Origin: Afipia sp. 64-13
GTDB lineage: Bacteria > Pseudomonadota > Alphaproteobacteria > Rhizobiales > Xanthobacteraceae
Direction: 5' to 3'
Assembly (NCBI GenBank): GCA_001897755.1
Contig: MKUJ01000003.1
Span: forward strand, 298,370 to 362,369
DNA length: 64,000 nt
A program made the translations under genes and the position numbers. Every line of letters starts with the position of its first letter. Position 1 is the first letter of the stretch. Under the pieces are notes generated by a model, which was given only the letters and a program-made list of their open reading frames with translations, had not been told where the DNA came from and did no database searches. This document shows positions 41,131-61,455 of this stretch, one piece after another.

Positions 41131-41144
41131 GTCCGTAGCTCCAG

Positions 41145-41552
41145 TCAGCGCTCGCCGCGTTCGGAAACGAGGCGATTGAGCGTAGCGACAATGGCTTCCG
41201 GGGGGGTATCCTGGAGAAGAACCTCAGCGACACCCATCTTTTTGAGCTCGACAACGTCTTCGTCGGGCATCACACCACCCGCGACGACAATCATGTCTGT
41301 CGCGCCCTTGCTGCTCAGAAGCGCAAAAATTTTCGGGAAGACGGTGAGCTGCACGCCGGAAAGCAAGCTAACGCCCAAGACATCAACGTCTTCCTGAATG
41401 GCGGCGTTGACGACCTCCTCGGGCGTACGATGCAACCCCGAGTAAATGACATCCATTCCAGCGTCGCGAAGCGTACGAGCTACGACCTTCACACCGCGGT
41501 CGTGACCATCAAGGCCGACCTTCGCCAAAAGCACACGAATAGGTTGCGACAC
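41145..41552 (-). CDS. hcmB: 2-hydroxyisobutyryl-CoA mutase small (B12-binding) subunit
   Basis: 135 aa. It carries the base-off/His-on cobalamin-binding motif in VGLDGHDRG (DxHxxG), then ...SLLSG... and GG motifs. Confidence 0.8.
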   Translation of the reverse strand: MSQPIRVLLAKVGLDGHDRGVKVVARTLRDAGMDVIYSGLHRTPEEVVNAAIQEDVDVLGVSLLSGVQLTVFPKIFALLSSKGATDMIVVAGGVMPDEDVVELKKMGVAEVLLQDTPPEAIVATLNRLVSERGER

Positions 41553-41617
41553 AGTTTCCCCCTCATTATCAATCCGTTTTGGGTTTGAGTTCTGGGTTTT
41601 GTACTCCGCATATCGTG

Positions 41618-41645
41618 TTCAGAACTCTGAATTCAGAACTCTGAA
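41618..41645. promoter_or_regulatory. Two abutting copies of the palindromic 14-mer TTCAGAACTCTGAA; candidate GntR operator in the hcmB / gntR divergent region
   Basis: Read directly at 41618-41631 and 41632-41645. A partial inverted half-site (GAGTTCTG) lies at 41587-41594. The second copy ends at the regulator's ATG. Confidence 0.4.
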
Positions 41646-42361
41646 TGACTCAGGCTTGCGCTGGTGTCAAGCGCGATACATATTGCAGTGCGGAATCAGA
41701 AGAGGATGGCGTGGAGTCTTTAGAAACACCGCGGAGCTTGGTCGACCAAGCCTATGAAGTCATTCTGGATGCCTTGTGCGATGGCACCTTCAAGGCTGGC
41801 GAACGATTGACCCAGGAGGACATTGCCGCACGATTGAACGTTTCGCGTCAGCCGGTGACGCATGCCCTTGCCGTCTTAAAGGCGCAGGGCTTCGTAGCTC
41901 AGGGACGTCGTGGCGTGGTCGTAACGTCGGTTGAGCCCGATTTTTTTAGAGCAATCTATCAATTTAGATCTGCGGTCGAACCTCTCGCAGTACGACTTGC
42001 AACGCCCCACATAACGAAACAAGCAATCGTCCGCGGTCGGTCTTTAGTGGAGCACGGGCGCAATTTAGTTGTCGCTGGAGATAGCAGAGCGACCCTTCAA
42101 GCTGACATCGATTTCCATTCTTTTATTTACGAGCTATCCGGCAATCCGCTTATTTCTGAAACAATGCGATTGCATTGGCGCCATTTGCGGCGCGCTATGG
42201 GCGAAGTCCTTCGTCATCCGGGAATGTCAATAAGCGTCTGGCAGGAACACGGAAGAATTCTTGAGAGCATGATCCGCGGTGACGCCGACGCTGCGTCGGA
42301 ACTAATGCGTCGACACATAATTGATGCGGTTGAGCGAGTTGAGAGGACCGAAGAGCCATAG
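41645..42361 (+). CDS. GntR-family (FadR/FCD subfamily) transcriptional regulator
   Basis: 238 aa with a wHTH (...LTQEDIAARLNVSRQPVTHALAVLKAQGFV...) and an all-helical FCD-like C-terminal domain. The exact start is uncertain. Confidence 0.85.
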   Translation: MTQACAGVKRDTYCSAESEEDGVESLETPRSLVDQAYEVILDALCDGTFKAGERLTQEDIAARLNVSRQPVTHALAVLKAQGFVAQGRRGVVVTSVEPDFFRAIYQFRSAVEPLAVRLATPHITKQAIVRGRSLVEHGRNLVVAGDSRATLQADIDFHSFIYELSGNPLISETMRLHWRHLRRAMGEVLRHPGMSISVWQEHGRILESMIRGDADAASELMRRHIIDAVERVERTEEP

Positions 42362-42652
42362 ATGCCGAGAAAGTCACATCGTATCGACGTCTAAATCACA
42401 GCGATGACTACCGCGCAGGCTCCCGCTGCTCTACCTAAAAGCCCTTGAAGCGAGCGATCAGCATATCACCGAGACGATCGGTCCGGCCGGATAAGGCTTG
42501 CGCTGGAGGTCTTGTTCTTTCGGCGAAACTTGCCTCCAGCAAATCGCGTCTGCAATATCGATCTTGCGCTTTGTCACGGATTCGCCATCCGCAAATGTGA
42601 TTCATTCCCACGAGGTCAAATCGGACGCGGCTTGACCGGGACTGACGCTGGC

Positions 42653-42683
42653 AATTTTTCCGCAATTAGGTAGCAAACGCCAC
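42653..42683 (+). repeat. Left target-site duplication (aatttttc) + left terminal inverted repeat
   Basis: Read directly; see the mobile element entry. Confidence 0.75.
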
Positions 42684-42726
42684 CAGACTGCGATCTCATC
42701 GCCTGACATAATAACCCCATCTATAT

Positions 42727-43176
42727 TTGGGGTTTTTGATGGACGTTGTTCGCGAACTACGCCGCAAGCAGGATGATTTGAGAGCTGACCGCCAGGCACT
42801 GGCCGATCAAATGGCCGAAATCGACGATCAGATCGCGGCGTTCGACACTGTTATTCAGACTTACGAGCCGGATCATCTGCCGGCGAAGAAAAAACCTCGT
42901 CAGAACGGGAAACGCGGCAACTTTCTCGACGGATTGTTCGTAGGCGACAATCTCAACGCGCGCATTCTCAACACGCTGCGACTGGCGCAAACGCCGATTT
43001 CATCGCATGAATGTGCAACCCGCGTCGCTTTGCAAAAAGGTGTCGCGGAGGACGACCCGCGCATCTCCGATATCTCTGGCCGGGTTTCGATCCAATTGTC
43101 CAATCTCGCGAGAAACAACCGGGTCGAGCAGATCAAGGGAGATGGACGAGCCTCTCTTTGGCGGATTGCCGCCTAA
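42727..43176 (+). CDS. Hypothetical coiled-coil + putative winged-helix protein at the transposon left end
   Basis: The ORF starts at TTG 42727, but ATG 42739 (MDVVRELRRKQDDL...) is more likely. It has an N-terminal heptad-rich helix, a basic linker (KKKPRQNGKRG) and a C-terminal segment resembling a wHTH. Its stop codon interlocks with the transposase stop (cCTAAc). Confidence 0.5.
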   Translation: MGFLMDVVRELRRKQDDLRADRQALADQMAEIDDQIAAFDTVIQTYEPDHLPAKKKPRQNGKRGNFLDGLFVGDNLNARILNTLRLAQTPISSHECATRVALQKGVAEDDPRISDISGRVSIQLSNLARNNRVEQIKGDGRASLWRIAA

Positions 43177-44183
43177 CCCCGCCAGACGAAATCGAAATCT
43201 TTCGGCTTGTTGCCTTGGAAGTAGCCGCAGAGATTCCGGGACGTCGGGTGCATTAGAGAGCGCACGAGCATCTCCATCGTAAGTCGCCGATTGCCTTTGC
43301 GACGAAGGTCTTCGCGCCACGCAAGCTCTGCTGCGTACCAGTCGAGATACTTGACCGAAAATCGGTGATGGATTCCGCGGTACGATCGCCGGACACGCGA
43401 GAAGAAGCTCTCGATGATGTTGGTCGATACGCCTTCACCATGCGAGAACGCCTTGGAGTGGTTCACACGCGTGAGCGGATTCAGGCCGCAAAGTTCGTCA
43501 TAGGCCAGATGTTCGTCGGCATAGACGTGAGCTTCGCGGCTCACATGAGACTTAACCAGATCCCAGGCGCAGTTGGCGTTCTCGGACTGTGTTACGCGCG
43601 TCACCGTTTGCCCGCGCCATCCGCGCTCACGCACGGCCATAACGACGACGCGTTGCGGTGTCTCGATCGTACGTCGATCCACACGATCTTCCTTGCGGTT
43701 TTCCTGACGAACAAATCCTAACAAATACATGCCGTCGATCTCGACTTCACCGTCGAGCAGCATGTTTCCGCGACGGGCTGCCAGAGCCTCTCGCAACTTC
43801 ATCAGGTTCAACCAAGCCGTTTTATTTTGGACTCCCAGCTCGCGTGCGACCTGCAGTGCAGCCTTGCCCTTCGCGCCGTTTGCCGACATGGCGATGATCG
43901 CAAGAATCTGCCTGAACATGAGCTTCCGGCTGGCGAAGAGCGTTCCGCTCGTGACCGTGAACTCCTTCTTGCATTCCTTGAAGGAACACTTGAAGCGACG
44001 GCCGCGTGCCAACTCATAGCACCGTACGTTGCCGCACTCGGGACAAACCGGTTCGCCGTTGGTCAGGGGCCAACGCGCACGCTTGAACAAGCGATACGCG
44101 CCGGGTTCGGTCATTCGCATGACCTTCTGGAGCGGCAGATCGCGCGCGTCCTTGGAAAGGAGGAAATGCTGTCCCATCAGCAC
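43173..44183 (-). CDS. IS1595-family DDE transposase (N-terminal zinc ribbon + ISXO2-like DDE domain)
   Basis: 336 aa with the zinc ribbon CPECG...FKCSFKECKKEF, an HTH region (…GKAALQVARELGVQNKTAWL…) and a DDE core (…EIDGMYL…, …YADEHLAY…). Confidence 0.85.
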   Translation of the reverse strand: MLMGQHFLLSKDARDLPLQKVMRMTEPGAYRLFKRARWPLTNGEPVCPECGNVRCYELARGRRFKCSFKECKKEFTVTSGTLFASRKLMFRQILAIIAMSANGAKGKAALQVARELGVQNKTAWLNLMKLREALAARRGNMLLDGEVEIDGMYLLGFVRQENRKEDRVDRRTIETPQRVVVMAVRERGWRGQTVTRVTQSENANCAWDLVKSHVSREAHVYADEHLAYDELCGLNPLTRVNHSKAFSHGEGVSTNIIESFFSRVRRSYRGIHHRFSVKYLDWYAAELAWREDLRRKGNRRLTMEMLVRSLMHPTSRNLCGYFQGNKPKDFDFVWRG

Positions 44184-44497
44184 CTCCCCCGAGGGGAAGC
44201 CAGATGGTCAGCGTATGGACCAGCCCCCGACCGAAGTCGTCAGAGCAGCACCTTGATAATGATGATGGGAAACCATTGAATACCTCGTTCTTGCACACAC
44301 CGCAGTAATTTGCGTGGCGAACGAGCGTTTCCGGATCAGACGGCCCCAAGCATAGCCGGGACGCGTGCATGAAAACGGCGGTCTGTCCGCTCGCCACGCA
44401 AATCTATGGCTATGTGAGAACGATAGGTCATGGCGGCCTCTTATCCGGGATGCCCGGTCAGATCCAGACTGCGAAGGATTCAACGTAAGCGTGATGC

Positions 44498-46600
44498 TTA
44501 CGAAGCTTCGTCAATTTTAGTCGCAGTTTCAGCAATCAGGCGGAGTCTGGGCTGACGAAGAAGGATTTCCCGAACCTCGTCTCCGGAGAGCGGCCGCTCC
44601 ATCAATTGCTCGGCAAGGTATTCAACCGCCTCGTGCTGCGATCCGATGATCCGCCGCGCGACGTCGAGTTGTTTGGCGAGAATGGCCTCGACGCGCATCC
44701 GCAAATCACCGTTGGTCCGAAGGCTGGCCAGCAAGTCCGCATCACTACGCGACGACAGGTAGGTTAATCTCCCGCCAAGACCGACGCTGGCCTCCATGAG
44801 GACGGCCTTGATCGTCGCCAGATAGAGATCGGTCCCGGGACCACCCCCGGCGCCGTCGGAACGACACCCCAGAAAGATTTCTTCGGCGGCAATGCCTCCA
44901 AGGAGGACGGCAATGTCGGCCAGGTAGGTTTCGTGGGTGCAGTCGTAGGTCGTGATCGGCATTGCGCGGACACCGCCTGCGATGCTGGTTTTACCCCGCT
45001 CAATTTGGGTCGCGATGGCCGCAACCAGAACCATGTCGAAGCCGATTTCCGTGATAACGGCGGCATGGCCAGCCTCGTGGATGGCCGCCCGCCAGCGCGA
45101 GTCCTCGGGAATGTCGATCATTTCTGGAAGCGATGCCAAGACATCCTCAATGACCATCTCCCGGCGTTCCTGCCGGGCGCGTCGGCGGGCCTCGCGGGCA
45201 AGACGTTCCAGATCGGCGCCGCTGGTGCCGTTGGTCCGCTCGATGACCTCGGACACTCCGACATCGGCCAGTGCCCCGCGCAGATGCCATCGCAAGATGC
45301 CCTCACGGGCCGACGCATCCGGCAATGGAATCTCGATGGTGCGGTCGAGCCGTCCGGATCGGGTCAGCGCCTTGTCGAGGCGACCGGGGTGGTTGCAGGC
45401 ACCGATGACCACGACGCCTTCCCGAGACTCGGCGCCATCGATGCATTCCAGCAGCGCGGCGACGACCTCGGTCGAGTATTGAGCATAATCGCCATCGAAA
45501 CGTTCGCGATCACCGACCGCGTCGATTTCGTCCAGAAACAGGATACTCGGCGCTTTGCTTTTCGCTTCATCGAAGGCGGAGCGCATGGCTTTGAGCATGT
45601 CCCCGAGATGTCCTCGAGCTTGCCACCGCGCGATGCTGCCGAGGACCAACGGTACGCCGCAGGTCTTCGCCAAAGCCTTCGCGTAGGTGGTCTTGCCCGT
45701 TCCGGGAACGCCATGAAGCAGTACTCCGCGATCGACGTCGCTCCATGGCAACGTGCCATTGGCCCACGCTTTCAGGTCCACGGCCAGGTCCTGTCCCCAA
45801 CTGCCAGCTTCGCCAAGACCGTGCATGTCATCCAGCAACGGCACGGTGTCGTCGCCTCTGGATGTGTCGGATTTGGGTTGCGCGGCCTTCAGGCGTTCCA
45901 ACCGCTCCAGCACCTGACGAAGGGATCGTCCCCGACGAATGGCCGCACCGATCATCGAGGCCGGAGCCTGCATCAGCAAATCGAGCGATGCGGAATCCGG
46001 CACCTGGCCCAGCGTCAGGCGGCAAGATGCTTCGACATGACGTCGTGTCGGTCCTTCCATCGTGACGACGGCGTCGGCGGCGGCGATCAATGCGTCCGGC
46101 GTGGCGTCAATGCTGGAAACGATGATCAGCAAGCGCGACTTTCGAAGAACCGAAATTACGTCAGCTTCTCCGAGGATCGGTTGCGAACCCGGACGGCGCT
46201 TGCCCGCGAGGTTCAAAACTTCATAGGTGTTCCCGCGCGAGACCCGTTCCGCGGCATCACCGATGTCAGATGGCGCCATGCCGTCCGCAATGACGACCAC
46301 GACGATCGCAGGCAGGCCCAGACGCACATAAGGCTCATGGCGAAGCGCGCGTGCCAAACAGCAATGCGCGAGGAACTTCGTGGCGTTCGCCTTGAAGATT
46401 TTCAGCAGACTGGAACGGGCGTCCGGGGAATGGAAAGACAAACTTGGCATTGAAAATACCGATGCTTGGAAAGCGCACCGCAACGGGTGCAGACATCGGG
46501 CAGGACGACGGCGTGCGCAGCCGTAGAGCGTCAAAACGCTCTCAACACGGCTCGAATTGGCAATGGATGGTTGGAATATCTTCACCGCATGCTGAATCAT
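44498..46600 (-). CDS. Soluble FtsH-like protein: unknown ~270-aa N-terminal region + AAA+ ATPase + M41 zinc metalloprotease, no TM helices
   Basis: It has Walker A GVPGTGKT, Walker B ILFLDEID, the second region of homology ...TRSGRLDR and the HEXXH site AIHEAGHAAV. The maximal ORF starts at 46600, but that part overlaps a non-coding repeat. MPSLSF... at 46453 is the more likely start. Confidence 0.8.
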   Translation of the reverse strand: MIQHAVKIFQPSIANSSRVESVLTLYGCARRRPARCLHPLRCAFQASVFSMPSLSFHSPDARSSLLKIFKANATKFLAHCCLARALRHEPYVRLGLPAIVVVVIADGMAPSDIGDAAERVSRGNTYEVLNLAGKRRPGSQPILGEADVISVLRKSRLLIIVSSIDATPDALIAAADAVVTMEGPTRRHVEASCRLTLGQVPDSASLDLLMQAPASMIGAAIRRGRSLRQVLERLERLKAAQPKSDTSRGDDTVPLLDDMHGLGEAGSWGQDLAVDLKAWANGTLPWSDVDRGVLLHGVPGTGKTTYAKALAKTCGVPLVLGSIARWQARGHLGDMLKAMRSAFDEAKSKAPSILFLDEIDAVGDRERFDGDYAQYSTEVVAALLECIDGAESREGVVVIGACNHPGRLDKALTRSGRLDRTIEIPLPDASAREGILRWHLRGALADVGVSEVIERTNGTSGADLERLAREARRRARQERREMVIEDVLASLPEMIDIPEDSRWRAAIHEAGHAAVITEIGFDMVLVAAIATQIERGKTSIAGGVRAMPITTYDCTHETYLADIAVLLGGIAAEEIFLGCRSDGAGGGPGTDLYLATIKAVLMEASVGLGGRLTYLSSRSDADLLASLRTNGDLRMRVEAILAKQLDVARRIIGSQHEAVEYLAEQLMERPLSGDEVREILLRQPRLRLIAETATKIDEAS

Positions 46601-46666
46601 CCCGCCCGGATTAGGCGGTTCTTGGGGATCAGTGTATGCAGCGGTGGAATTTCATGGCGAGAACGT
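46547..46666 (+). repeat. Copy 1 of a ~120-nt dispersed direct repeat (upstream of the FtsH-like gene)
   Basis: By manual alignment it matches 50382-50505 at roughly three quarters of positions. There are long identical runs (cgaattggcaatg; gctgaatc.tccc.cccgg; tggggatcag; cggtggaatttcatgg.gagaacgt). Confidence 0.7.
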
Positions 46667-46769
46667 ATAGGGAACGATTGAGCGTCCGTCAATCCCTTCG
46701 TGTCTATCAGGAAGCAGACGCTCCTCCGATAAACTTCCCAGATGGTAAGGTATTCGTGCGTCATCGCGT

Positions 46770-48401
46770 CTACCAAGCGTAAGTACTGTTGGCACCTGAC
46801 GCGATTCCAGAGACACCGCTGGTCAGACCAACGACCTGAACAGGCGTTGATCTGTTCGTCGTCGTAGTGTCGCCGAGTTGGCCGCTGTTGTTGCTTCCCC
46901 AGCACTTCGCTCCACCGGAGACAATAGCGCAGGTATGGTTGTCGCCTGCTGCGATAGCGGTAACTCCACTGGTCAGCCCAGCAGAAACCGGAGATGTCGT
47001 CCACGTCACGGCCGTGTTGCCGAGTTGGCCGCTGTTGTTGCTTCCCCAGCACTTCGCTCCACCGGAGACAATAGCGCAGGTGTGATAGGTACCGGCGGTA
47101 ATTGAGGTGACACCGCTGGTTAGCCCGGAGACCTGAACCGGTGCTGTCCTATTCGTCGTGCTACCATCACCGAGTTGACCACCGCTGTTGCTTCCCCAGC
47201 ACTTCACGGCTCCGCCGGAGACGATGGCGCAGGTGTGGCTGTCGCCTGTCGCGATCTTGGTGACACCACTGGTTAGCCCAGAGACCTGGACCGGAGACGT
47301 CCTGTTCGTCGTGCTACCGTCCCCGAGTTGGCCGTTGCCATTGTATCCCCAACACTTCGCCCCACCGGAGACAATAGCGCAGGTGTGATAGGAACCTGCC
47401 GCGATCGAGGTAACTCCACTCAGCCCCTGCACTTTAACCGGAAGCAATTTATTTTCAGTGGTCCCAATGCCGAGTTGGCCGTAGCCGTTAAATCCCCAGC
47501 AATCGACGGTCCCGTCAATTGCAAGACCGCAGGCATGATAAATCCCTGCGGCAACCTGCTTGTAGGTCTTTCCGCCGAGAACAGGGGCAGATGTACTTCT
47601 GTCGATCTTGGTTCCATCGCCAAGTTGGCCGCTGCTGTTGTATCCCCACGCCATCACGTTCGAAGGCGGCAACGTGTTTTTCAGAGAAAACACGCCGCTT
47701 GTCGCTTCGGTTTCGTCGAAGTCATCCTTGACCTTGACGGTGAGGTTCTCGAGCGAACACACATCGGTCGGCGTTCCGGAGATCTTGCCGTCCGTTGCCG
47801 AGAACGACAGGCCCGGGCATTGCGTGCCGAAGTCCGTCATCGGTGCCGACGATTGCATCAGCGTATAAGTAGCCGTGTCGACAAGCCCCTTTAAAACGTA
47901 AGCTGGCTGCGCATCCAGCGCCGTGTTGACCGTTCCCTTGATCTCTCCGGCAGGACCGCCAGTGATCGCAAGGATGGGGTGAACCGTAACGGACGCAGAT
48001 CCGGCCGTCACCGTTTTGACCCCCTCGCTCGCCGTGGCGGTCACCTGAAAGGTGATCGGGTCTTCCACGGTTGGCGCGGTCGCGGTGACGCCGCCTTCGA
48101 CGGTCGCGAACCCGATAGATGGCTCTGCGGGCGTCTGCGTGAACGACCACGAGGGAGTTGTCAGCGTCGAATCCAGCGTTCCAGAGATCGTCGTTCCTGC
48201 ACGGTATTTGTCGGCCACGAAACCGAAGGATGCGGACGCCGGAGTCTCGGGCGATGTGTCTTCGCCGCCGTTGTCGGGATTCCCGGAAACATCCGAAACA
48301 GGGCTGCCCTTGCTGCGGAAATAATAGCTGTCAGCCAGGGCCGATGCCGACAGGGCGATGGAGAAAACGGCCGTCGCCAGCAAGATCGCCTTCGAGTTCA
48401 T
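46770..48401 (-). CDS. Secreted RCC1-repeat (beta-propeller) protein with N-terminal Ig-like/beta-rich region
   Basis: 543 aa with a signal peptide (MNSKAILLATAVFSIALSASALA). At least six or seven RCC1 blades carry the motif (C/A)WG.N..GQLG(D/N) and HTCAIVSGGAKCWG. Confidence 0.8.
   Translation of the reverse strand: MNSKAILLATAVFSIALSASALADSYYFRSKGSPVSDVSGNPDNGGEDTSPETPASASFGFVADKYRAGTTISGTLDSTLTTPSWSFTQTPAEPSIGFATVEGGVTATAPTVEDPITFQVTATASEGVKTVTAGSASVTVHPILAITGGPAGEIKGTVNTALDAQPAYVLKGLVDTATYTLMQSSAPMTDFGTQCPGLSFSATDGKISGTPTDVCSLENLTVKVKDDFDETEATSGVFSLKNTLPPSNVMAWGYNSSGQLGDGTKIDRSTSAPVLGGKTYKQVAAGIYHACGLAIDGTVDCWGFNGYGQLGIGTTENKLLPVKVQGLSGVTSIAAGSYHTCAIVSGGAKCWGYNGNGQLGDGSTTNRTSPVQVSGLTSGVTKIATGDSHTCAIVSGGAVKCWGSNSGGQLGDGSTTNRTAPVQVSGLTSGVTSITAGTYHTCAIVSGGAKCWGSNNSGQLGNTAVTWTTSPVSAGLTSGVTAIAAGDNHTCAIVSGGAKCWGSNNSGQLGDTTTTNRSTPVQVVGLTSGVSGIASGANSTYAW
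46872..47400. repeat. 147-bp (49-codon) tandem repeats encoding RCC1 blades, two units sharing a 63-nt identical stretch
   Basis: 46872-46934 is identical to 47019-47081. More diverged units follow at about 47166 and 47316. Confidence 0.75.
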
Positions 48402-48439
48402 ATGCGCACCCTTTTCCTATAAGGGTGCGACGATCGGGC

Positions 48440-48508
48440 CGCCGGCGCAACTTCGCCGGCGCAATCGTGCAACGCGGTTTCACCTCGGCAATGACGAGAT
48501 GAAACCGC
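48440..48508 (-). terminator. Two hairpins directly after the GmrSD-like stop codon (putative terminator)
   Basis: One stem is gcggtttca/tgaaaccgc (48474-48508) and the other is a GC stem cgccggcg/cgccggcg (48440-48461). Neither has a clear U-tract. Confidence 0.3.
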
Positions 48509-50277
48509 TATTTGGCCGCGACCAACATGGGTACTGAACCTCCAAGCAGATCCACCAGCTTCTTCCGGAGTCGATCTCGCCGAGCGGCATAGAAGGCTTC
48601 GAACCCCTCAAGATCAGCAGGCAGGTCGCCCAGTTCATGCTTGGTGCGATAATGGACCTGAGATGTTGCATCAGGCAAATGCGTCGATAGCCAAGCTGTC
48701 GGTAGCGCTGCCTTTTTCTCGTTGTTAATGGCACCTTCAAGCAATTGAAGGTTCGGCAACGTGTTTGCGTGCTGGGCCATGACTTCGGCCTCCGCAGCGC
48801 TGAATCCCTGCTTCTGTAGGCGCGCTGGAGTGAACCTTGAAATCGGGTAGACATGATCGACGTGAAACTGGTTACGGAGGTCAACAAACGGGAAAAGGAG
48901 AGACAGCAGCGGAAATGTTCTCTTGTCGCCGTACTCGAGATGCAAAAGATCTTCGATCTCGGCAGGTTCGAACGTCAGAGACTTGCCACGCTGGCTCATG
49001 GCTTGCCGCAACTGTTCGACAGGAAATGCTTCTCCCGGGGCCGCCTGCAATACCTCGCGAAGCGCCGTTAAGAGCGTATCGAGACCACTTCCCCAAATGC
49101 CAGAAGCCTTGACGATGGACTTGACCAACCAATCCTTGATCGCCTCGCGATCATTCGCGAATTGGCTGTGAGTCACGTAGTTGGCGGGCGCGTTGCGCTT
49201 GTAGAGATAATAAGCAATCGGCAATAGCGCGCTGTCCGCCTTCAAGGTCTGCCCGTTTAAACCGAAGCTGGAGGCGAGTTCGACGGTTCGGACCAGAGCC
49301 GACCGAATGGAAGGCCAGTTCGATTCCAAAGCCAGCATGTTGGCGGTTGTGAAATTCTCGACCTTGAATCCGACGGACGCAATATCAGCCAGCATGAGGC
49401 CAGCCTTCAAAACGAAATCCTGACTGAGTACGAACCCTGTTCCGATACGGTTCAGATCATCGACCAGCTTATGGATTTCGGCACGCGCATCGACATGCGT
49501 CCATTGTGCGACGGCGATACTCAGAAGCAGGTCCGAATAGGACAGGATCGTTCCACCCGAATTCAACCGAATGAAAATATTGAGTACTCGCTCGAGATCC
49601 TGTGCTTCTTCCTCATAGTAATTGATGAGGTTGTGGGAGTGTACCACGCGGTGAAGACGGTCGAGTATTGCGTAAGCTCCCTGCAGAGCGTCACCCTGAA
49701 GCCCTCGCTCCATCAGTGTCGCCAGCATCGCAGGACCATCTTTCATGCCAAGGATATTAGGCACCTTGAACCAGTGGGCTTTTTCGTCTCGCTCGACCTG
49801 TCCATCGTCCAAAAACTTGAAACGATACCTCACCCCGTCTTCGTCGGGCGTGGGCGAAGCCAGCAAATCCAGATGTAGCGTCCGGATGGGAAAAGCGTCG
49901 GGGTTCGTCCACCATTTATTTGGCTGCTTGATCGCCATCGCGCCTCTGAGACCGATGTTCAAGGCAGTCAGGCGCTGCTGCCCGTCCAAGACGGCAGTTA
50001 CGCTCTGGTGTTGAAGTATCCCGATTTCCGGACAGTGGGCGGCATCACGTTGATGGTAGTTCAGGACAAAATCATAGAATTTGAATTTTCCACCGGTCGG
50101 GGCCTCGACCTTCCAGAATAAGAAGGTCCCGAACGGATAGCCCTGCATAAGGCTGTCAAACAGTCGTTCGATCTGTTCTGGCTTCCAGACAAACTCCCGT
50201 TGAATCGCTGGGAGTACGTAGCTCTTTGTTTGTATACGCCCCAGCGCCTCGGCGATGGTGCCGCCCGGTTTATACAT
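48508..50277 (-). CDS. GmrSD-family type IV (modification-dependent) restriction-like enzyme: DUF262 (ParB-like NTPase) + DUF1524 (His-Me finger nuclease)
   Basis: 589 aa. The N-terminal motifs are LPAIQREFVW and DGQQRLTAL. The C-terminal motifs are HVDHVYPIS and ...NLQLLEGAINNEK. Confidence 0.8.
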   Translation of the reverse strand: MYKPGGTIAEALGRIQTKSYVLPAIQREFVWKPEQIERLFDSLMQGYPFGTFLFWKVEAPTGGKFKFYDFVLNYHQRDAAHCPEIGILQHQSVTAVLDGQQRLTALNIGLRGAMAIKQPNKWWTNPDAFPIRTLHLDLLASPTPDEDGVRYRFKFLDDGQVERDEKAHWFKVPNILGMKDGPAMLATLMERGLQGDALQGAYAILDRLHRVVHSHNLINYYEEEAQDLERVLNIFIRLNSGGTILSYSDLLLSIAVAQWTHVDARAEIHKLVDDLNRIGTGFVLSQDFVLKAGLMLADIASVGFKVENFTTANMLALESNWPSIRSALVRTVELASSFGLNGQTLKADSALLPIAYYLYKRNAPANYVTHSQFANDREAIKDWLVKSIVKASGIWGSGLDTLLTALREVLQAAPGEAFPVEQLRQAMSQRGKSLTFEPAEIEDLLHLEYGDKRTFPLLSLLFPFVDLRNQFHVDHVYPISRFTPARLQKQGFSAAEAEVMAQHANTLPNLQLLEGAINNEKKAALPTAWLSTHLPDATSQVHYRTKHELGDLPADLEGFEAFYAARRDRLRKKLVDLLGGSVPMLVAAK

Positions 50278-50381
50278 TGGCCCCCGCAGAATCTCTTTGA
50301 TGAAAGCTCTATTTTAACGCGTCGCGTTCCGCTGACCAGCCCGAAAAGATGGCTTCCTGCGGACGTCAACGCGCCCGCAAA

Positions 50382-50505
50382 ACGGTTCGAATTGGCAATG
50401 TGACGTCGTGGATACGTTTCTCCGCGCGCTGAATCGTCCCACCCGGCTTTGGGGAGGTCCCTGGGGATCAGGGTATGTATCGGTGGAATTTCATGGTGAG
50501 AACGT
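50382..50505 (+). repeat. Copy 2 of the ~120-nt dispersed direct repeat (upstream of the GmrSD-like gene, overlapping the annotated 5' end of the CoiA-like ORF)
   Basis: See copy 1. It has the same orientation and a similar distance (about 100-230 nt) from the start of the minus-strand gene to its left. Confidence 0.7.
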
Positions 50506-52468
50506 GAACATTCTCGCGCTTGTCACCCCTTTGTGTCGAAAGGGAATCGGACGATTCTCCAATGGAATCCAGAACAGCAGAGCGACCGTGACCCAGCACG
50601 TACCTCCCAGATACTCGTCCAAGGATGCCAATCTCGTCTACGGCGTCGATACCCTTGGCGTGATGCGACATATCTCCGAGGTCGAACGGGGAGACGCGTG
50701 TGGATGCACTTGTCCTGCCTGCAACGCGCCTCTGACCGCAAGAAAAGGCCAAGATAACGTCCATCACTTTGGACATCAGGCCTCCACTTCTTGTTCGAAC
50801 GCTCCGGAAACAGCGTTGCATAGGCTTGGAAAGGAGATCGTAGCGACGAAGTTGCTCCTCGTTCTTCCGGAGGTCAGAGCAGAATTCAATGGCGAGGCCG
50901 ACATCCTTCACAAGGCTGGGCCAGTCTCATTCGACAAAGCAATCCAAGAAGCGCGACATCTCCAGAACGTGGTGCCGGATCTTTATGTCGAACGTGACGG
51001 ACACCGCCTGCTTGTCGAGATTTACGTCACCCACGCGTGCGACGAATTGAAACGCGCGGAACTAAAGAATCGAGGCATTGCCACGGTCGAGATCGACTTG
51101 TCACGCCTTCCCAGGAATGCATCGCGCTCCGAGGTTGAAGAAGCCGTCTTCGAGAAAGCTAGGCGCTATTGGGTTTTCCACCCCAAGATTGATGCCGCAA
51201 TCACGGCAATGCACACGCGGCATCAATCCAAGCTGGACGCGCAACGCCTTAAATTCGAGAAGGAAGTTGCAGACTGTCTACGTCGGTACGATGTCGGCTT
51301 GAAGGAATTGGCAAACCGCAAGGTGGAGCCACCCGATGAGGATGGAGAATTCTTCCGCATTGGGTTGGGGACTCATATCGGATGCTCCGTAGGTGGCGCG
51401 GGCGGATTTCTTGTAACCGAGCGGGAATGGCAATTTGCGATCCTTCGGACCTTCCTGCCGGAAGACGCGCAACCCTTACCCTATCGGCTGAAGGCCTTTT
51501 TCGACTGGCTCAAGAAGCAGCAGTGGATTCGAGCGGGATTCCAATACATCCGTCCCGAACTCGAAGACGCCGTGCGTGGTCAGAATGACCAGTTCCGAAG
51601 TCCGTACCGTGCCGTCGAAGCCTATCTCGACCATCTTGTTGAGAGAGGAATTCTCCAGAAGCATCGATCGTATTCACTTTCCACCAATCTGCTCGATGAG
51701 CTTCTTGATCTCCGCGCCATCGATCAACGCAAGACGTCCCGCAGAAAAAGCCTATCTGAACGCATCGAAAAGATACTGGGATGTATTCCGGATCGTGAGC
51801 GTGGTGATCTGACCGCCAAATCGTGGATGACGTTGCCGCAGAATGGAGGAAAATCATTCGACGCCGTCATCGAAGACGACGATGAGGTTTTCGACGACAT
51901 GATCGTTCCCTTGCGAAAGATTGAGGCGATGATGTTCCGGAACGGCCCATCGGTCTTTCAGACACTTGGTTTGCCGATAGAGCATGAACAAGAACGCCAG
52001 ATGGAGGCACGAAGGCTGGAAGCCGAGGCCAAGGAACTGGAGAAGGCCGAAGCATTGAGGAAAGCCGCAGAGGAGCGCGGAAAAACTCTTGCATCCATCG
52101 CTTCAGAGCATGGTCCCGAATGGACATCTTTAATCGAAACGCCGCACCCGGCTTTCAATGGGAAGACGCCGCTGGCGACCGCGATTGAAGGAGTAGATGG
52201 CCTGAACCAAGCCCTGATATTCCTGCAAGGCGCACTCGATAAACGCGCTCGTGAACGGTCAGAAGCTGAAGAAGTACACCGATGGCTTATGGCGCTGGAG
52301 CATCAAGCGATCACAATATTGAGCGACATGGCACGACCATTCCTGAAGTCGCCTTATCCGTTGGGGCCGCTTGGAAAGAAATTCAGGCCTTGGGACTACT
52401 GCGTATCGGAAGCGACTTTCAAGGAATGCGTCGAACTTGCCAAGGGCTTGCTGAAGAAGCGGCGATAG
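50408..52468 (+). CDS. Large hypothetical protein with CoiA-like N-terminal module (zinc ribbon + HF.H + PD-(D/E)xK-like nuclease core) and ~450-aa helical C-terminal extension
   Basis: The N-terminal module reads GCTCPACNAPLTARKGQDNVHHFGHQ...C...ETALHRLGKE, then VVPDLYVERDGHRLLVEIYVTH, like the competence protein CoiA family. The first ~35 codons of the maximal ORF (GTG 50408) lie inside the dispersed repeat. The real start is probably downstream (TTG 50531 or GTG 50588). Confidence 0.6.
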   Translation: MDTFLRALNRPTRLWGGPWGSGYVSVEFHGENVNILALVTPLCRKGIGRFSNGIQNSRATVTQHVPPRYSSKDANLVYGVDTLGVMRHISEVERGDACGCTCPACNAPLTARKGQDNVHHFGHQASTSCSNAPETALHRLGKEIVATKLLLVLPEVRAEFNGEADILHKAGPVSFDKAIQEARHLQNVVPDLYVERDGHRLLVEIYVTHACDELKRAELKNRGIATVEIDLSRLPRNASRSEVEEAVFEKARRYWVFHPKIDAAITAMHTRHQSKLDAQRLKFEKEVADCLRRYDVGLKELANRKVEPPDEDGEFFRIGLGTHIGCSVGGAGGFLVTEREWQFAILRTFLPEDAQPLPYRLKAFFDWLKKQQWIRAGFQYIRPELEDAVRGQNDQFRSPYRAVEAYLDHLVERGILQKHRSYSLSTNLLDELLDLRAIDQRKTSRRKSLSERIEKILGCIPDRERGDLTAKSWMTLPQNGGKSFDAVIEDDDEVFDDMIVPLRKIEAMMFRNGPSVFQTLGLPIEHEQERQMEARRLEAEAKELEKAEALRKAAEERGKTLASIASEHGPEWTSLIETPHPAFNGKTPLATAIEGVDGLNQALIFLQGALDKRARERSEAEEVHRWLMALEHQAITILSDMARPFLKSPYPLGPLGKKFRPWDYCVSEATFKECVELAKGLLKKRR

Positions 52469-52485
52469 ATAATCAAAATTATCTA
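52466..52485. terminator. 8-bp perfect AT-rich hairpin (tagataat-caaa-attatcta) spanning both convergent stop codons
   Basis: Read directly. The TAG of the CoiA-like gene (52466-52468) and the TAG of the GIY-YIG/alpha-CTD gene (complement of 52483-52485) form the two ends of the stem. Confidence 0.35.
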
Positions 52486-53439
52486 TTCTGAAATCGAAAA
52501 GGATGCCTCTGCGAGCCACTGAGCAAGGTCCATGCCGAGATGCAGGCCTGACAGGGCGAGCAATTCCTTGATTTCATTGAGCGCCTTCCGCCCGAAATTT
52601 GGCGTTCTGAGCATCTCGGCTTCGGATTTCTGCACCAGTTCGCCGACATAGTTGATCCCATCGTTCTTTAGGCAGTTTGCCGATCTGACAGACAACTCCA
52701 ATTCGTCGGTGCGTTCGAGAAGTTTGCCTGCCTGAAGCGACAGAAGCTCGATGTTCGGTGGGGGCCAGCCCGTGACGGATAAGCCGAGATGTAGCCCGAC
52801 CTGTGCCAAAATCTCTTTCAATTCATTCAGTGACTTGCGTCCGAAGTTCGAGGTTCGGAGCAGTTCGGCTTCTCCCTTTTGCGCGAACTCGCCGACGTAG
52901 CGGATGCCTTCATTATTCAGGCAATTGTAGGTGCGTACCGAAAGTTCGAGTTGGTCGATATCTCGAAGAAGATGGATTGATGGCGGGATTCCGACGGGAG
53001 GAACGTAGGGCAACGGATCAGGCGGAGGTGGCGTCCAGCCGAATTCGTAATCACTCGACCGCCAGGATGTTGTGGCGCTCGCGCGTTGCGCATCATCTAG
53101 AAACTCAGTCAGCGCCTCCACAGCAATACCAAATCGACAATTGACGATCTCACGACCTTTTTGCCGATGGCCTTCTTTATTGTACATGCGCAATTGACGA
53201 TATCGCTTTAGGCGACGGCGGGCATCGTGTTCGACCCGTCCGCCCTCATCGACCCAGACATAATAGAGCAGAACCCAGTCGTCGATGCTGCCGTAGGCAG
53301 TTCTGCGGAGCCGTCTTTCTTGCTGTCGGATGTTCACGGTCGTGCCGATTTTGAGGACACGATGAGACAGCGACCCTGCTATGTAGACATAACCGGAACC
53401 GTAATATCTATCGCGGAAAGTATCCGACCAGTCATCCAT
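52483..53439 (-). CDS. GIY-YIG/T5orf172-like domain fused through a Pro-rich linker to two tandem RNA polymerase alpha-subunit C-terminal domains (alpha-CTD)
   Basis: 318 aa. Residues ~14-112 read GYVYIAG...LKIGTT...RQQERRL...GREIV. Residues ~156-231 and ~238-305 each read (D/E)LELSVR(T/S)(Y/A)NCL(N/K)N(E/D)GI.YVGE..QK.EAE(L/M)LRT.NFGRK.LNE(L/I)KE.LA..GLHLG. That is the alpha-CTD helix-hairpin-helix sequence nearly motif for motif. Confidence 0.8.
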
Positions 53440-53472
53440 CTGGTGTTCTCAGCAATAAGATTGTGGCGTCTG

Positions 53473-54309
53473 TCACGGTCGAAGCTGACCTGAAACACTC
53501 GATTGCAATTTCTGACTGATCAATTTCGCCAATTCAGCAATCGTATTGAGCATTAATTCCCGCATCTTCAGATCATCGGAATATGTCAGTCGCAGTTTCA
53601 GACAGTGCGACCCAAGCATCGCAATCCCGGCGATAGACATGTCTTCTCCGATAAGGAAGTGCTGCAATACAAACGGCTCGGCGACGTGAACAGGCCATGG
53701 TGTCTTTGCATCGGGATGTGCGGCTAGGACTTGATTGCAAACCAATTGCAGTTCTCGTTCTCTGATCTCGCTGGAAGAGGCTCCCTCCATTCGTCCGTCC
53801 GCTGCGCCATAGATATAGATTGCGGCCTTTGCACCCAGCGCGGAGTACAACAGTGAGGTGTCAAGAATGGCATCGCCCTGGCTGTTGTCGATTGTACCAT
53901 CAAAATGAAGCCACCCGATTTGCGAGGGGGCGCAGAATGCGATTCGTGGGTCGGACCATTCAATCAGAGGCGCGGAGGCGTCTGGCGTCCCGTCAACGTG
54001 ACTTACATCGAAATATAGAGAGCGAACCTCTGAAACGATCTGATCTTGTGTGAACGCGACCGTTTCAATTCGAAGCTTCTGTATCGTTGACACAACTTCC
54101 GGAACAGCTTCAGATTCCAATAGCCGCCACAGTTCCTGTCTTCCCCGCCCAAGGCCACGAAGGAGATTTAACTGCGTTCGGGTTGCATACCTCGAAGAAC
54201 ACGGCTCGATAACGAATGGATCTGCAATCCGGCCGCTGCCCCCTCGTATGAGAACATCGATCCCAAAATCAGCCTTGAGGGCTTCGCGGATAGTCATTGC
54301 TCTGGTCAT
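53473..54309 (-). CDS. Hypothetical protein, first gene of the two-gene module with the GIY-YIG/alpha-CTD protein
   Basis: 278-aa ORF, co-oriented with and 33 nt upstream of the next gene. I recognise no motif. The transposon right IR lies ~130 nt upstream. Confidence 0.55.
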   Translation of the reverse strand: MTRAMTIREALKADFGIDVLIRGGSGRIADPFVIEPCSSRYATRTQLNLLRGLGRGRQELWRLLESEAVPEVVSTIQKLRIETVAFTQDQIVSEVRSLYFDVSHVDGTPDASAPLIEWSDPRIAFCAPSQIGWLHFDGTIDNSQGDAILDTSLLYSALGAKAAIYIYGAADGRMEGASSSEIRERELQLVCNQVLAAHPDAKTPWPVHVAEPFVLQHFLIGEDMSIAGIAMLGSHCLKLRLTYSDDLKMRELMLNTIAELAKLISQKLQSSVSGQLRP

Positions 54310-54438
54310 CCCGGCAGGTCTTCGGGATGCCAGTGTACAGATGATTTGGTGTTGGGGAGATGCGTCGTCGATCTAACGAGGGATTCAAACTTCGAAAGAG
54401 AAAATATGTAATTGAATCAGTTATTTATGCGCGATTTT

Positions 54439-54469
54439 GTGGCGTTTGCTACCTAATATCGAATTTTTC
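54439..54469 (-). repeat. Right terminal inverted repeat + right target-site duplication (aatttttc)
   Basis: Read directly; see the mobile element entry. Confidence 0.75.
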
Positions 54470-54616
54470 TGCAGACGTCCCGTGGACCACCCTTCCCCGC
54501 TAGCCATGGGCAATGCACGGTCTCAAGCTGATCTGCCTTTAAACTCGGCATTTGAAGAACTTTGAGCGACTAGGTAGTGCACGGAAGCGTTATCCGGATT
54601 TGGTCTGCGCAAGGCA

Positions 54617-54820
54617 ATGAATCTTTCAATGTCTCCCTACATCTCGTTCTGCACGATTGAGCCGCGAACCGGTTTGTGTCTTGGGTGCGCGCGCACCTTA
54701 ACCGAGATTACTGATTGGCAATTTATGAGCTCGGACAAACAAGCGGAAATCAACAAAACATTGATCCAACGGTTTACCGAAGCTGGAATCGAGGTTCCGC
54801 AGGCGTTCTTGAACGATTGA
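54617..54820 (+). CDS. DUF1289-family small Cys protein (C-terminus probably replaced at a rearrangement junction)
   Basis: 67 aa. SPYISFCTIEPRTGLCLGCARTLTEITDW fits the DUF1289 C..C...C.GC pattern. The last ~15 codons are the reverse complement of a TonB-receptor-like fragment. Confidence 0.6.
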   Translation: MNLSMSPYISFCTIEPRTGLCLGCARTLTEITDWQFMSSDKQAEINKTLIQRFTEAGIEVPQAFLND

Positions 54821-55010
54821 GTTGTACGCTTGGTATCGTGCCCAAAGTCTCTTCACGGTCTGTCCCGGCGACCGCCTGATGTCGTCGGCGGTGATGACAC
54901 TGGTCGAGGCCCCTATAACATTTATCGTGTTGCTAGCTTCCACGAGACGACTGGCTTCGTTGTTGATGGCGGCAAGAGTCGCAACTACCGGCTCGAATGC
55001 TCGCGCAGGG
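54780..55010 (-). pseudogene. Fragment of a TonB-dependent receptor plug domain (frameshifted)
   Basis: The minus-strand translation gives ...NTINVIGASTSVITADDIRRSPGQT. After a frame change it reads ...EETLGTIPSVQLN..., which resembles the TBDR plug consensus. There is no barrel portion. Confidence 0.3.
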
Positions 55011-55536
55011 CTCCGGCAGGCGCCGCCACCATGGCCTCGTTTTCTGAAGAACTGCCGTGGTATGAAGGGCGTTTTCCGCGCATGGCGCAAAGCTGCCATC
55101 AAAACCTTGATAGCCGAAATACATGCTATTTCATGAGCTTAGATGGCGCGCCGCCTCAGGTGATGATGCGAACTATGTCTACTCCATAGCCCTCTAAGGC
55201 CCTCCTTTTGCGAGAAACGAGGCCTGCCGCTCCGCGGGGCTTGGTGGGCAGCTTGCTGTTCATCGTCTTCAAGTCGATCACAAGCCTGCTCATATGCATG
55301 CGGTGGGTGATGGCCATACCAAGATCGATCTGATCAGTCCGCGATTGCGGTCCCGAGCGCCGGGCGATGGAGGTCGTGCCCCGGCACCGGGCTACGCGTC
55401 TGGCACGATAATCGCCCGGCTTGTTGGCAGGAATACCGACCTTTGCGTGCGGGTGGCGATTTGTCCGGGGATTACGCGATCCCGACGGCCGCCTTTTGCA
55501 GAATAGTGGTAGGCGCGCCTCGCGGCAGGCGGCGCA

Positions 55537-57299
55537 GTGTTGATGCCCGCCCGCATCCAATTTCTTTCATCAAACGAAAAGGACGTCCAGTTGACGACCG
55601 ATACCTCCGTGCGTTCCGATCTTCCTTCCTCCTCTCCGGCGGTGACCCGTGTTGTCTCCTACCTTCGCGTCTCGACCGGCCGGCAGGCTGAGAGCGACCT
55701 GTCGATTCCCGACCAGCGTCGTCAGATCGAGCGCTATTGCGCCGCTCGCGGCTGGACGATCGTGGAAGACTATGTCGAGCCTGGCAGCAGCGCGACGGAC
55801 GATCGGCGCCCGGCCTTTCAGCAAATGATCGATGCGGCCTTGGTCAGGCCGCCGGCATTCAGCACGATCCTCGTTCACAGCTTCTCGCGTTTTTTCCGCG
55901 ATCAGTTCCAGTTTGAGCGCTATGTCCGCAAACTCGCGAAGAACGGCATGCAGGTCATCTCGATCACCCAGGACCTAGGCGACAATCCGATGGGCATGAT
56001 GATGCGCCAGATCGTGACCCTTTTCGACGAATATCAGTCGAAGGAAAACGCCAAGCACACGCTACGCGCCATGTGCGAGAATGCCCGGCAGGGCTACTGG
56101 AACGGCGCCCGGCCGCCTGTCGGCTATCGCACGGTGGCGGTCGAAAAGCGGGGTTCGAAAATCAAGAAGACGCTGGAGATCGATCCGCTCCACGTCGGGA
56201 CGGTACGGCTGATCTTCCGACTTGCGCTTGAAGGCGCCGATGGCAGCGGCCCGATGGGCGTGAAGGCGATCACGCGCCTTCTCAATGAACGCGGCATTCG
56301 TACGCCGAATGGCGGGCGCTGGGGCCTGTCGCAGATCCACACCATCCTGACCCGCCCCACCTACATCGGCGAACATCGCTTCAACCGTCTTGAGGCCCGT
56401 ACCAAACAACGCAAAGCAAAGATGGAACACGCCATCATGTCCGTGCCGCCGCTGATCGCCGAGCATGACTTCAACGAAGTCCAACGCCTGCTCCAATCAC
56501 GCAATTTCAAAATGATGCACCCACAGGCTGTCGGCGGACCGATATTGCTCACCGGAATTTGCTTCTGTGCCTCGTGCGGCGGCGCGATGACCCTTCGCAC
56601 CGGCAGGGGCAGCACAGGACGATCGTATCGCTACTACACCTGCTCGACCCGAGCGCGGCGGGTCGAACAGGATGCCAGGGACCGGCGGTCCCGATGGACC
56701 GGCTGGACGACGCCGTGATCGACTTCCTCCGCTCGACGCTGCTCGCTCCCAAACGGATCGAGACGTTGATGACCCCGCTTATGACACATCGTGAAGACTG
56801 GGCGGATCGTCGGCGCCAGCATGTTGTTGAGTTAAGAGCGCAGGTGGATGAGGCAGAGCGCAAGCTCCGAAATCTGTATGAAGCCGTCGAAAACGACATG
56901 CTTGCCAGTACAGATCGGATGTTCAAGGAGCGCATCGCCCAACTCTCCACCCGCCGGGAGCAGGCAGAGACCGAAGCTGATCGCGTCGAGGCAATGGTGA
57001 TCCGGACAGGCCCTATGCTGTCTATGCAGGACGTGATCCGTATGGCGAAGGATGCGCGGATGAGATTTCAGACGGCCGGTAAACCGCCTCGTCAAATCAT
57101 CCGGACACTGCTCCAGCGGGTGGAGGTTGTTGGCAAGGATGAAGCTCGCGTGGAAGGATCGCGAGACGGACTACTGAAGGCGATCGCCTCTACAACCGGT
57201 AACAGGGCGATCATGACGGCAGGCGCTGGTGGGTTGAGCTGGCATCTGGCTGCCCGGGAGGGCATGGAAGATGCCTATGTTTTCTGTGTAGCGATGTAG
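55537..57299 (+). pseudogene. Large serine recombinase (resolvase domain + recombinase domain + zinc ribbon + coiled coil) interrupted by a frameshift near 56650-56690
   Basis: Frame 1 gives VVSYLRVSTGRQ...(catalytic Ser)...CASCGGAMTLRTG...YYTCSTRA and then runs into nonsense and a stop at 56718. The -1 frame continues with ...GCQGPAVPMDRLDDAVIDFL... and a coiled coil to 57299. The probable start is GTG 55642. This could also be a sequencing error. Confidence 0.75.
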
Positions 57300-57468
57300 G
57301 GCAAACAGGCCGGAGTGCAGGGGGATACCATCGCACTCTTCGGCCTAACTGACGGCTTAAGGAGCCAAGAGCGAACCGTCCGATTCTGAGCGTACAGGAT
57401 CGAACATCCGCCACTAACGGCATGGTGATCACCGAGCCTAGCTAGCGGCAACACTCGCTTTAGCAAGT

Positions 57469-60548: not shown

Positions 60549-60553
60549 GATTA

Positions 60554-61447: not shown

Positions 61448-61455
61448 GAGGCCTC

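Follow-up and report, generated by a model that had tools for sequence, protein, structure and literature searches.

The IS1595 family of insertion sequences (IS) comprises elements that generate 8-bp duplications and encode a single transposase, in which an N-terminal zinc finger precedes a C-terminal DDE domain; it includes the ISNha5 group, and an N-terminal zinc ribbon is found in all of its groups except IS1016 (PMC8101967). IS-like elements that carry passenger genes, known as transporter IS (tIS), occur in the IS1595 and IS66 families (bioRxiv 10.1101/2021.05.26.445724), and the passengers of ISNha5 include transcription regulators (PMC11891212). Here, we analysed a 64,000-nucleotide stretch of Afipia sp. 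64-13 (GCA_001897755.1, contig MKUJ01000003.1, positions 298,370 to 362,369 of the forward strand; hereafter the window, in whose numbering positions are given) and identify the 11,817-bp segment at 42653-54469, with high confidence, as an IS1595-family tIS with a single DDE transposase and passengers, inserted with an 8-bp target duplication. Tip-to-tip boundaries, an empty site in a related strain and a family of relatives with the same terminus carry this identification. IS1595-family tIS, among them an ISNha5-type group, have reportedly been treated by Siguier, Gagnevin & Chandler in 2009 and in ISfinder.

Insertion as a single unit

The segment is bounded by a pair of terminal inverted repeats (IRs), each directly abutted by the same octamer:

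42653-42660, left copy of the target-site duplication, AATTTTTC, 8 bp, read directly; single copy in the empty-site contig L048
42661-42683, + strand, left terminal inverted repeat (IR-L), CGCAATTAGGTAGCAAACGCCAC, 23 bp
54439-54461, - strand, right terminal inverted repeat (IR-R), GTGGCGTTTGCTACCTAATATCG, reverse complement CGATATTAGGTAGCAAACGCCAC
54462-54469, right copy of the target-site duplication, AATTTTTC, 8 bp, read directly

The left junction reads gctggc, then AATTTTTC, CGCAATTAGGTAGCAAACGCCAC and cagact, and the right junction tttt, then GTGGCGTTTGCTACCTAATATCG, AATTTTTC and tgcagacg. An earlier note on this DNA had described both the repeats and the abutting octamers, and direct reading bears it out: the IRs agree at 21 of their 23 positions and share a perfect core of 19 bp, their mismatches being confined to positions 3 and 4 (CGCA versus CGAT), and the terminus consensus of the family described below runs past IR-L as CA(G)A to ~42687. 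A repeat finder returned this pair as the longest inverted repeat within 40000-57500. The 19-mer core has exactly two matches in the window with up to three mismatches allowed, none of 100 dinucleotide-preserving shuffles contained any match to it, and the same 8-mer would stand at both ends by chance once in 65,536 cases.

The earlier note had further predicted an empty site in which the flanks are contiguous, a condition set beforehand as a test that could refute it. Scanning a metagenome collection with the joined-flank 24-mer CGCTGGCAATTTTTCTGCAGACGT recovered one contig, OEIU01000641.1 (L048), from a related strain. Bases 1-273 of this contig align with window 42408-42664 (91%) and bases 262-470 with window 54462-54670 (98%), with additional right-flank blocks aligning as far as window 55152; the flanks are joined contiguously around one AATTTTTC. 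The difference between the two strains is exactly the element plus one additional 8-bp target copy. Transposition therefore brought in the 11.8 kb in a single piece and duplicated 8 bp of the target, which supports the core of the earlier reading; this happened after the lineages of the window strain and the L048 strain had parted. Empty-site look-ups via the exact flanking proteins (GntR and a 133-aa open reading frame (ORF)) found the element present on every contig; with 99.9-100% identity to the window in the contigs aligned, the look-ups contribute no independent evidence, and the element-bearing contigs, including the metagenome-assembled genome (MAG) GCA_017308625.1, appear to be one strain sampled many times.

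A single IS1595-type transposase

Eight ORFs lie within the element, and just one of them has a transposase domain:

43173-44177, - strand, IS1595-family transposase, 334 aa, ATG at 44177; Pfam and NCBIfam matches

An alternative GTG start at 44183, chosen by the ORF lister, lengthens the protein by two residues; an exact-protein look-up found the 334-aa ATG-start product on record and no match for the 336-aa GTG-start form. Pfam and NCBIfam agree that this sole internal transposase is of the IS1595 type, with a zinc ribbon and an ISXO2-like DDE domain, as previously suggested: it matched Zn_ribbon_IS1595 (PF12760; E 3e-08), DDE_Tnp_IS1595 (PF12762; E 1.3e-40; 152 of 153 profile positions covered) and transpos_IS1595 (NF033547; 130 bits, cutoff 75). 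Aligned over its entire length with 13 homologues (48-90% identity), it shares C45, C48, C64, C69, D148, D221 and E256 with all of them. Judged by its full length and these invariant zinc-ribbon cysteines and DDE residues, the transposase looks catalytically intact.

The closest named relatives of the transposase are Nitrobacteraceae and Rhodopseudomonas proteins (81-82% identity), and the homologues P0001 (90%) and P0003 (83%) sit on contigs L011-L013. In PLSDB, neither megablast with the whole element nor blastn with its ~4-kb backbone (see below) found a close copy, and plasmid homologues of the transposase recovered by tblastn had at most 58% identity, with no Nitrobacter plasmid among the matches.

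A family of elements sharing one terminus

Scanning species-representative genomes with the core ATTAGGTAGCAARCGCCAC returned 24 stretches, and all named hosts were Alphaproteobacteria bar one MAG labelled Pseudomonadales; hosts included Rhodopseudomonas, Mesorhizobium, Microvirga, Aureimonas, Phyllobacterium, Tsuneonella, Aurantiacibacter and Tardiphaga as well as Acetobacteraceae and Hyphomicrobiales MAGs. The 41 distinct termini give the consensus CGGyATTAGGTAGCAAACGCCACCA, with position 3 being G in 29, A in 9 and C in 3. Relatives (here given L-numbers) with delimited or apparent ends are as follows:

L013, complete element, 5207 bp; ends CGGCATTAGGTAGCAAGCGCCAC and its inverse; duplication GAATTTTG
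L049, Microvirga ossetica plasmid, 2752 bp; inositol monophosphatase, transposase and partner gene; duplication GAACAATC
L050, Phyllobacterium zundukense plasmid, 3021 bp; hypothetical gene, frameshifted transposase and partner gene; duplication CGTTAATC
L016 3935-4865, Aureimonas sp. SK2, 931 bp; without transposase, MNT/HepT toxin-antitoxin pair; duplication GATGGTTG
L026 6638-7678, uncultured alphaproteobacterium (MAG), 1041 bp; without transposase, two response-regulator receiver genes; duplication GAGATAAC
L025 2978 to ~3160, Mesorhizobium sp. AaZ16 plasmid, ~170 bp; resembling a miniature inverted-repeat transposable element (MITE), with a degenerate right IR; apparent duplication GGTTGTT(G)

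The first five of these inserted independently: each has an 8-bp duplication of its own, and their passengers differ. L011, whose tip is CGATATT, lies at a third distinct site. The terminus is conserved even at L018, where the transposase is just 39% identical to that of the window. The 23-bp sequence is thus the terminus of a family of IS1595-type elements and not a regulatory motif. As the earlier note expected of this family, and as documented for it (PMC8101967), 8-bp duplications are seen in the window and in five relatives. At 11.8 kb, the window element is also unusually large, as had been surmised, compared with 2.75-5.2 kb for complete transposase-bearing relatives.

At 19 of 44 ends, against ~3 (1 in 16) expected, the dinucleotide next to the tip is TC (counted by eye in the window, L011-L037, L049 and L050), and four of six verified duplications begin with GA, a post hoc observation that suggests a loose palindromic GA(N4)TC target preference. 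The transposase would bind the conserved 19-25-bp termini and cut with an 8-bp stagger in such a GA(N4)TC-like target.

Several loci hold other arrangements of the same terminus. On the M. ossetica plasmid (NZ_CP016618.1; L049), IRs lie at 8367-8385, 10795-10813 and 13520-13538; the first (one mismatch, same orientation) lies 2.4 kb outside the complete element with an HTH-domain gene between, and use of this alternative outer end by the transposase could yield an enlarged element. In Rhizobiales bacterium 62-47 (MKVX01000007.1; L020 160-199), two facing IRs stand 2 bp apart (CGAAATTAGGTAGCAAACGCTAC-ca-GTGGCGTTTGCTACCTAATTTCG) with no matching 8-bp flanks, a minimal 'ends-only' remnant. Rhodopseudomonas faecalis NZ_QJTI01000017.1 carries two related elements on one contig (L022; L035 4631-8000 with L015 1-39), one of which, ~3.4 kb if L015 directly follows L035, has unlike end 8-mers (CACAACAG versus GATGTCTG) that could reflect recombination between copies or nested insertions. 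Single IRs were found in 8-kb genome loci, and several are maybe solo ends; that of L029 lies among lytic transglycosylase, TatD DNase and C39-like peptidase genes, and that of L028 near an IS4/IS5-type transposase.

An inherited backbone

DNA homology with relatives divides the element in two. Homology with the compact relative L013 covers window 42658-46676 (75%) and ends there; with L011 it runs at 84% to the end of that contig (window 46024), and with L022 at 76% to the end of that locus (window 46308). The left limit with these relatives (window 42654-42665) is the left end of the element. We take 46676 as the boundary between backbone and cargo: a ~4-kb backbone (42653-46676) comprising IR-L, a 145-aa gene, the transposase gene and an FtsH-like gene with its promoter-like leader is inherited, and only 46677-54438 (7.8 kb) is specific to this element. 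Besides the transposase gene, the backbone carries the following features, together with a second copy of the leader in the cargo:

42739-43176, + strand, 145-aa accessory protein, N-terminal long helix and C-terminal winged helix; homologues and AlphaFold (AF2) model
44498-46600, - strand, FtsH-like AAA+/M41 zinc-protease, 650-700 aa by start codon; Pfam
46529-46666, - strand, leader cassette copy 1, promoter-like, ~140 bp, upstream of the FtsH-like gene
50364-50505, - strand, leader cassette copy 2, ~140 bp, upstream of the GmrSD-like gene; 77-87% identical to copy 1

The 145-aa gene is convergent with the transposase gene, which it overlaps by 4 bp at the 3' end. Its product has no match in Pfam, PADLOC, NCBIfam or PHROG and has 24 homologues. 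In the AF2 model (pLDDT 79.6), a long helix at the N-terminus is connected through a disordered linker to a winged helix at the C-terminus; the model's best Foldseek matches, weak at E ~3e-3, are winged-helix repressors of the MarR, ArsR-SmtB and Fur types. A profile hidden Markov model (HMM) of the protein found a homologue beside the IR, at the 3'-end side of the transposase gene, in all transposase-bearing relatives examined (L011, L013, L022, L030, L035, L049 and L050, with a weaker match, E 1.7e-05, in L018). The coiled-coil/winged-helix protein that had been counted as cargo is instead a conserved partner of the transposase, and we infer from the model and this placement a DNA-binding regulator or cofactor of the element, which would act on transposition or on element promoters.

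Likewise, the FtsH-like protease had been listed among the cargo, and it belongs instead to the 4-kb backbone common to the sub-lineage relatives. It matched Pfam AAA (E 7e-34) and Peptidase_M41 (E 3.5e-13), carries a Walker A motif (GVPGTGKT) and HEAGH, scored 185 bits against FtsH_fam, far under the 600-bit equivalog cutoff, and in PADLOC matched the IetA and TRIP13 profiles through its AAA domain alone. Copies adjoin the transposase in L011 (90% identical), L012/L013 (70-81%) and L022 (77%). Retention only within the 82-90% sub-lineage, a frameshift in L012/L013 and absence from L035, L049 and L050 mark it as a probable old, dispensable passenger.

The leader cassette has a third copy upstream of the FtsH-like gene in L013 (2980-3100). 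It contains a promoter-like pair (TTGACG-17-TATACG), direct ACGTTC(TC) repeats that lie about one helical turn apart and span the -10 element, and an 8-codon ORF (MKFHRxIx-stop) preserved in all three copies. Nothing in Rfam matched 42000-55500 at E up to 1, which sets the cassette apart from known RNA families.

A 7.8-kb cargo with one candidate defence gene

At least five passenger genes lie within 46770-54309:

46770-48401, - strand, RCC1-repeat protein, 543 aa; Pfam RCC1 E 6e-60, six repeats
48508-50277, - strand, GmrSD-like type IV restriction-type enzyme, 589 aa; Pfam, PADLOC and PHROG
50408-52468, + strand, CoiA_N-domain protein, up to 686 aa; Pfam CoiA_N E 4.7e-07
52483-53439, - strand, 318-aa protein with N-terminal T5orf172 (GIY-YIG-like) and two RNA-polymerase alpha-CTD domains; Pfam and NCBIfam
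53473-54309, - strand, 278-aa protein; no family match

The cargo had been described as a defence mini-island, of which one part stands. The GmrSD-like protein matched Pfam GmrSD_N (E 3.4e-29), phrog_17051 (E 1.5e-173) and, over residues 2-578 of 589, the PADLOC profile HEC-05 (PDLC04151; E 3.4e-224), a candidate defence family. Its translation contains a DGQQR motif (LDGQQRL) and a C-terminal His-Me-finger-like HVDHVYP...NLQLLEGAINNEK. With a full-length profile match, DUF262/GmrSD_N, DGQQR and the His-Me-finger motif, it is a predicted member of the GmrSD/HEC-05 family, and it would let the host restrict modified phage DNA.

Among the cargo, it is the only gene with a match to a catalogued (candidate) defence family. 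The T5orf172/alpha-CTD gene is linked to defence by guilt by association. Its family comprises ~100 clusters of ~310-320 aa, with two alpha-CTD domains throughout and T5orf172 recorded for some in precomputed annotations, and its named members come from Nitrobacter, Bradyrhizobium and Rhodopseudomonas. One homologue adjoins CBASS, mCpol/Cap15 and reverse-transcriptase genes, and another an HNH-helicase gene. Three homologue neighbourhoods (L051, L052 and L053) have no gene in common with each other or with the window, so that no multi-gene module with the 278-aa or CoiA-like genes is evident; its homologues occur singly, in variable or defence regions, and it could be a defence or anti-defence gene that works alone and is as yet uncharacterised. 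The remaining cargo genes, for RCC1, CoiA-like and 278-aa proteins, are without defence evidence. The RCC1 gene has internal repeats of 147-153 bp and encodes an N-terminus that looks signal-peptide-like by eye. The CoiA_N gene has been called at 550, 626, 661 and 686 aa, with the true start probably downstream of cassette copy 2, and its product has no PADLOC, NCBIfam or PHROG match; the 278-aa protein has none in Pfam, PADLOC, NCBIfam or PHROGs.

Assembly of the element

Direct repeats of the cassette bracket the block formed by the RCC1 and GmrSD-like genes, the pattern that recombination between related elements with different cargo would be expected to leave. On the tIS reading, the cargo would have been stacked onto a compact ancestor, and the 140-bp cassette, now found in duplicate ahead of the FtsH-like and GmrSD-like genes, would have taken part in one stacking step. 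A two-part origin offers another history, which we regard as unlikely: a compact ~4-kb element (IR-L to ~46676) would have adopted a distant second end 7.8 kb away, supplied for instance by a solo IR or by a cassette without transposase, and captured the genes between before the whole moved once. The sharp end of backbone homology at 46676 fits such a capture, solo or extra ends and transposase-less cassettes are common in the family, and the third IR of L049 shows a route by which an alternative outer end can enlarge an element. Against it, the duplicated cassette points to recombination between related elements, and there is no convincing IR remnant at the backbone/cargo boundary. The only IR-like 19-mer there, at 46706-46724, was considered as such a remnant and rejected, having five mismatches (about chance in 17.5 kb) and the wrong orientation. 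The two-part origin concerns history only; under it, too, the 11.8-kb unit would have transposed as the final step.

A more speculative proposal, to which we attach rather little credence, is that the winged-helix gene, joined in the sub-lineage by the FtsH-like protease and the 140-bp cassette, forms a transposon-encoded control module and not a set of passengers, a regulatory and cargo-acquisition logic previously undescribed for IS1595-type tIS. In such a module, the ACGTTC(TC) repeats overlapping the cassette promoter, or the IRs, would be the binding sites of the winged-helix protein, and this binding would set expression of the transcription unit of the FtsH-like and transposase genes. 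Cargo behind a cassette copy, such as the GmrSD-like gene, would fall under the same control, and the cassette would also serve as a homology patch for swapping or stacking cargo among related elements.

Genomic context of the insertion

The target is intergenic, between the gene for a GntR-family regulator, at the end of a B12-dependent mutase operon, and a spacer proximal to tRNA-Arg. In the empty-site strain, this spacer continues into tRNA-Arg(ACG) (L048 938-1014), and homology with the window covers only ~9 nt at the 3' end of that tRNA gene before it stops. Beyond this breakpoint, the window carries large serine recombinase, Gabija and Qat genes (55153-64000):

55537-56718, large serine recombinase, 1 kb right of the element
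57469-58737, GajB (Gabija), E 7.5e-18
58734-60569, GajA (Gabija), E 1.2e-50
60695-61447, QatD, E 7e-126
61456-62805, QatC, E 1.4e-210

This defence island appears to have integrated at tRNA-Arg(ACG). A tRNA search of the entire window found none, which places the far end of the island past base 64000. The integration hotspot that this island occupies is ~0.7 kb away from the element.

The neighbouring recombinase gene and the hotspot by the tRNA-Arg site are what could favour integration of the 11.8-kb segment by that serine recombinase, with the repeats as attachment sites, and we give this reading almost no chance. Serine recombinases act through a 2-bp crossover and are not known to make 8-bp direct duplications or 23-bp terminal inverted repeats; the gene for this one is not enclosed by the duplicated octamers, the element and one octamer account for the whole difference from the empty site, and the same termini flank IS1595 transposases elsewhere. 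The L048 empty site and the delimited relatives effectively refute it. Equally negligible is a host regulatory or REP-like repeat that brackets genes by chance: its core is present in many alphaproteobacterial genomes, yet visible pairs of copies are always inverted and tip-out, have 8-bp duplications specific to their locus on the outside and an IS1595 transposase or a small cassette within, and the window has just two copies, which effectively refutes that reading too.

G+C content is ~0.54 over ~28-55 kb of the window versus ~0.62 elsewhere in it. Across the MFS/B12-dependent mutase/GntR operon it is ~0.51-0.57 versus ~0.60-0.65 on either side, and that operon may itself have been horizontally acquired. 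The transposon is mostly low in G+C too, with a higher stretch (0.58-0.63) at the FtsH-like and RCC1 genes (44-49 kb).

Possible present-day mobility

Two observations weigh against the tIS reading. Both tips of this element (CGCA and CGAT) differ from the majority CGGy; CGA and CGC tips recur in the family, including in the L016 cassette with its perfect duplication. The element sat at one and the same site on all contigs that encode an identical transposase, GntR, 278-aa protein or 133-aa flank protein; those with an identical transposase or flank protein revealed no second insertion of the exact element. Taken together, no evidence contradicts the tIS reading. No excision product or circle junction was seen among the recovered contigs, and the earlier suggestion of a recent insertion that may still be mobile is compatible with the seemingly intact transposase, IRs and duplication.

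In one sample, represented by JGI 3300006187 and Logan SRR5413244 with the same breaks and perhaps the same data (L045/L046, L058/L064/L065), the left-flank contig ends at 42682, the penultimate base of IR-L, the right-flank contig ends at 52822 in the alpha-CTD gene, and the element interior is joined to neither flank. These contig breaks could come from low coverage or a structural variant.

The locus thus provides a clean, fully delimited IS1595-family tIS with a matching empty site, about twice the size of the complete transposase-bearing relatives delimited here. It also shows that several genes, a restriction-type defence gene among them, can be moved as a block by a minimal element with one transposase. 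The ~25-bp terminus, the winged-helix partner gene and the transposase-less toxin-antitoxin and signalling cassettes offer a search key for annotating alphaproteobacterial elements. Known transposition mechanisms are unchanged by this element.

Comparison with known systems

The element has the four hallmarks of the IS1595 family (DDE domain, zinc ribbon, 8-bp duplication and a single transposase between short IRs) and those that define a tIS: IRs, a duplication, one transposase and passengers unrelated to transposition. Tn7-like transposons, which move by TnsABC(D/E) machinery, are vehicles for anti-phage genes. Like them, the window element is a transposon that carries a predicted anti-phage gene in or near a defence hotspot; unlike them, it has one DDE transposase, no dedicated attachment site and one catalogued defence gene only. 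A second comparison is with mobile insertion cassettes (MICs) and MITEs, as in the IS231-MIC231 system. The relatives L016, L026 and L025 are transposase-less units with the same IRs and 8-bp duplications (apparent in L025), and were presumably moved in trans; the window element differs in having its own, seemingly intact, transposase.

The closest likeness is to tIS of the ISNha5 type. ISNha5-group ends in ISfinder read CGGnnTT, which the family consensus CGGyATT fits and from which the window tips CGCAATT and CGATATT deviate at position 3; element sizes in this group are 3.5-7.9 kb. The predicted winged-helix gene beside the IR is in keeping with the transcription-regulator passengers described for ISNha5. 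Membership of the ISNha5 group is likely, given the tip consensus, this regulator-like gene and the Nitrobacteraceae relatives, with ISNha5 itself likened by description. Both have a single zinc-ribbon/DDE transposase, short IRs, an 8-bp duplication, passengers inside the IRs, a small transcription-regulator-like gene and alphaproteobacterial hosts related to Nitrobacter; the window element stands apart in its 11.8-kb length, its CGCA/CGAT tips and a cargo with a GmrSD-like restriction-type gene alongside five other genes. It is a new and unusually large tIS, of a kind already known.

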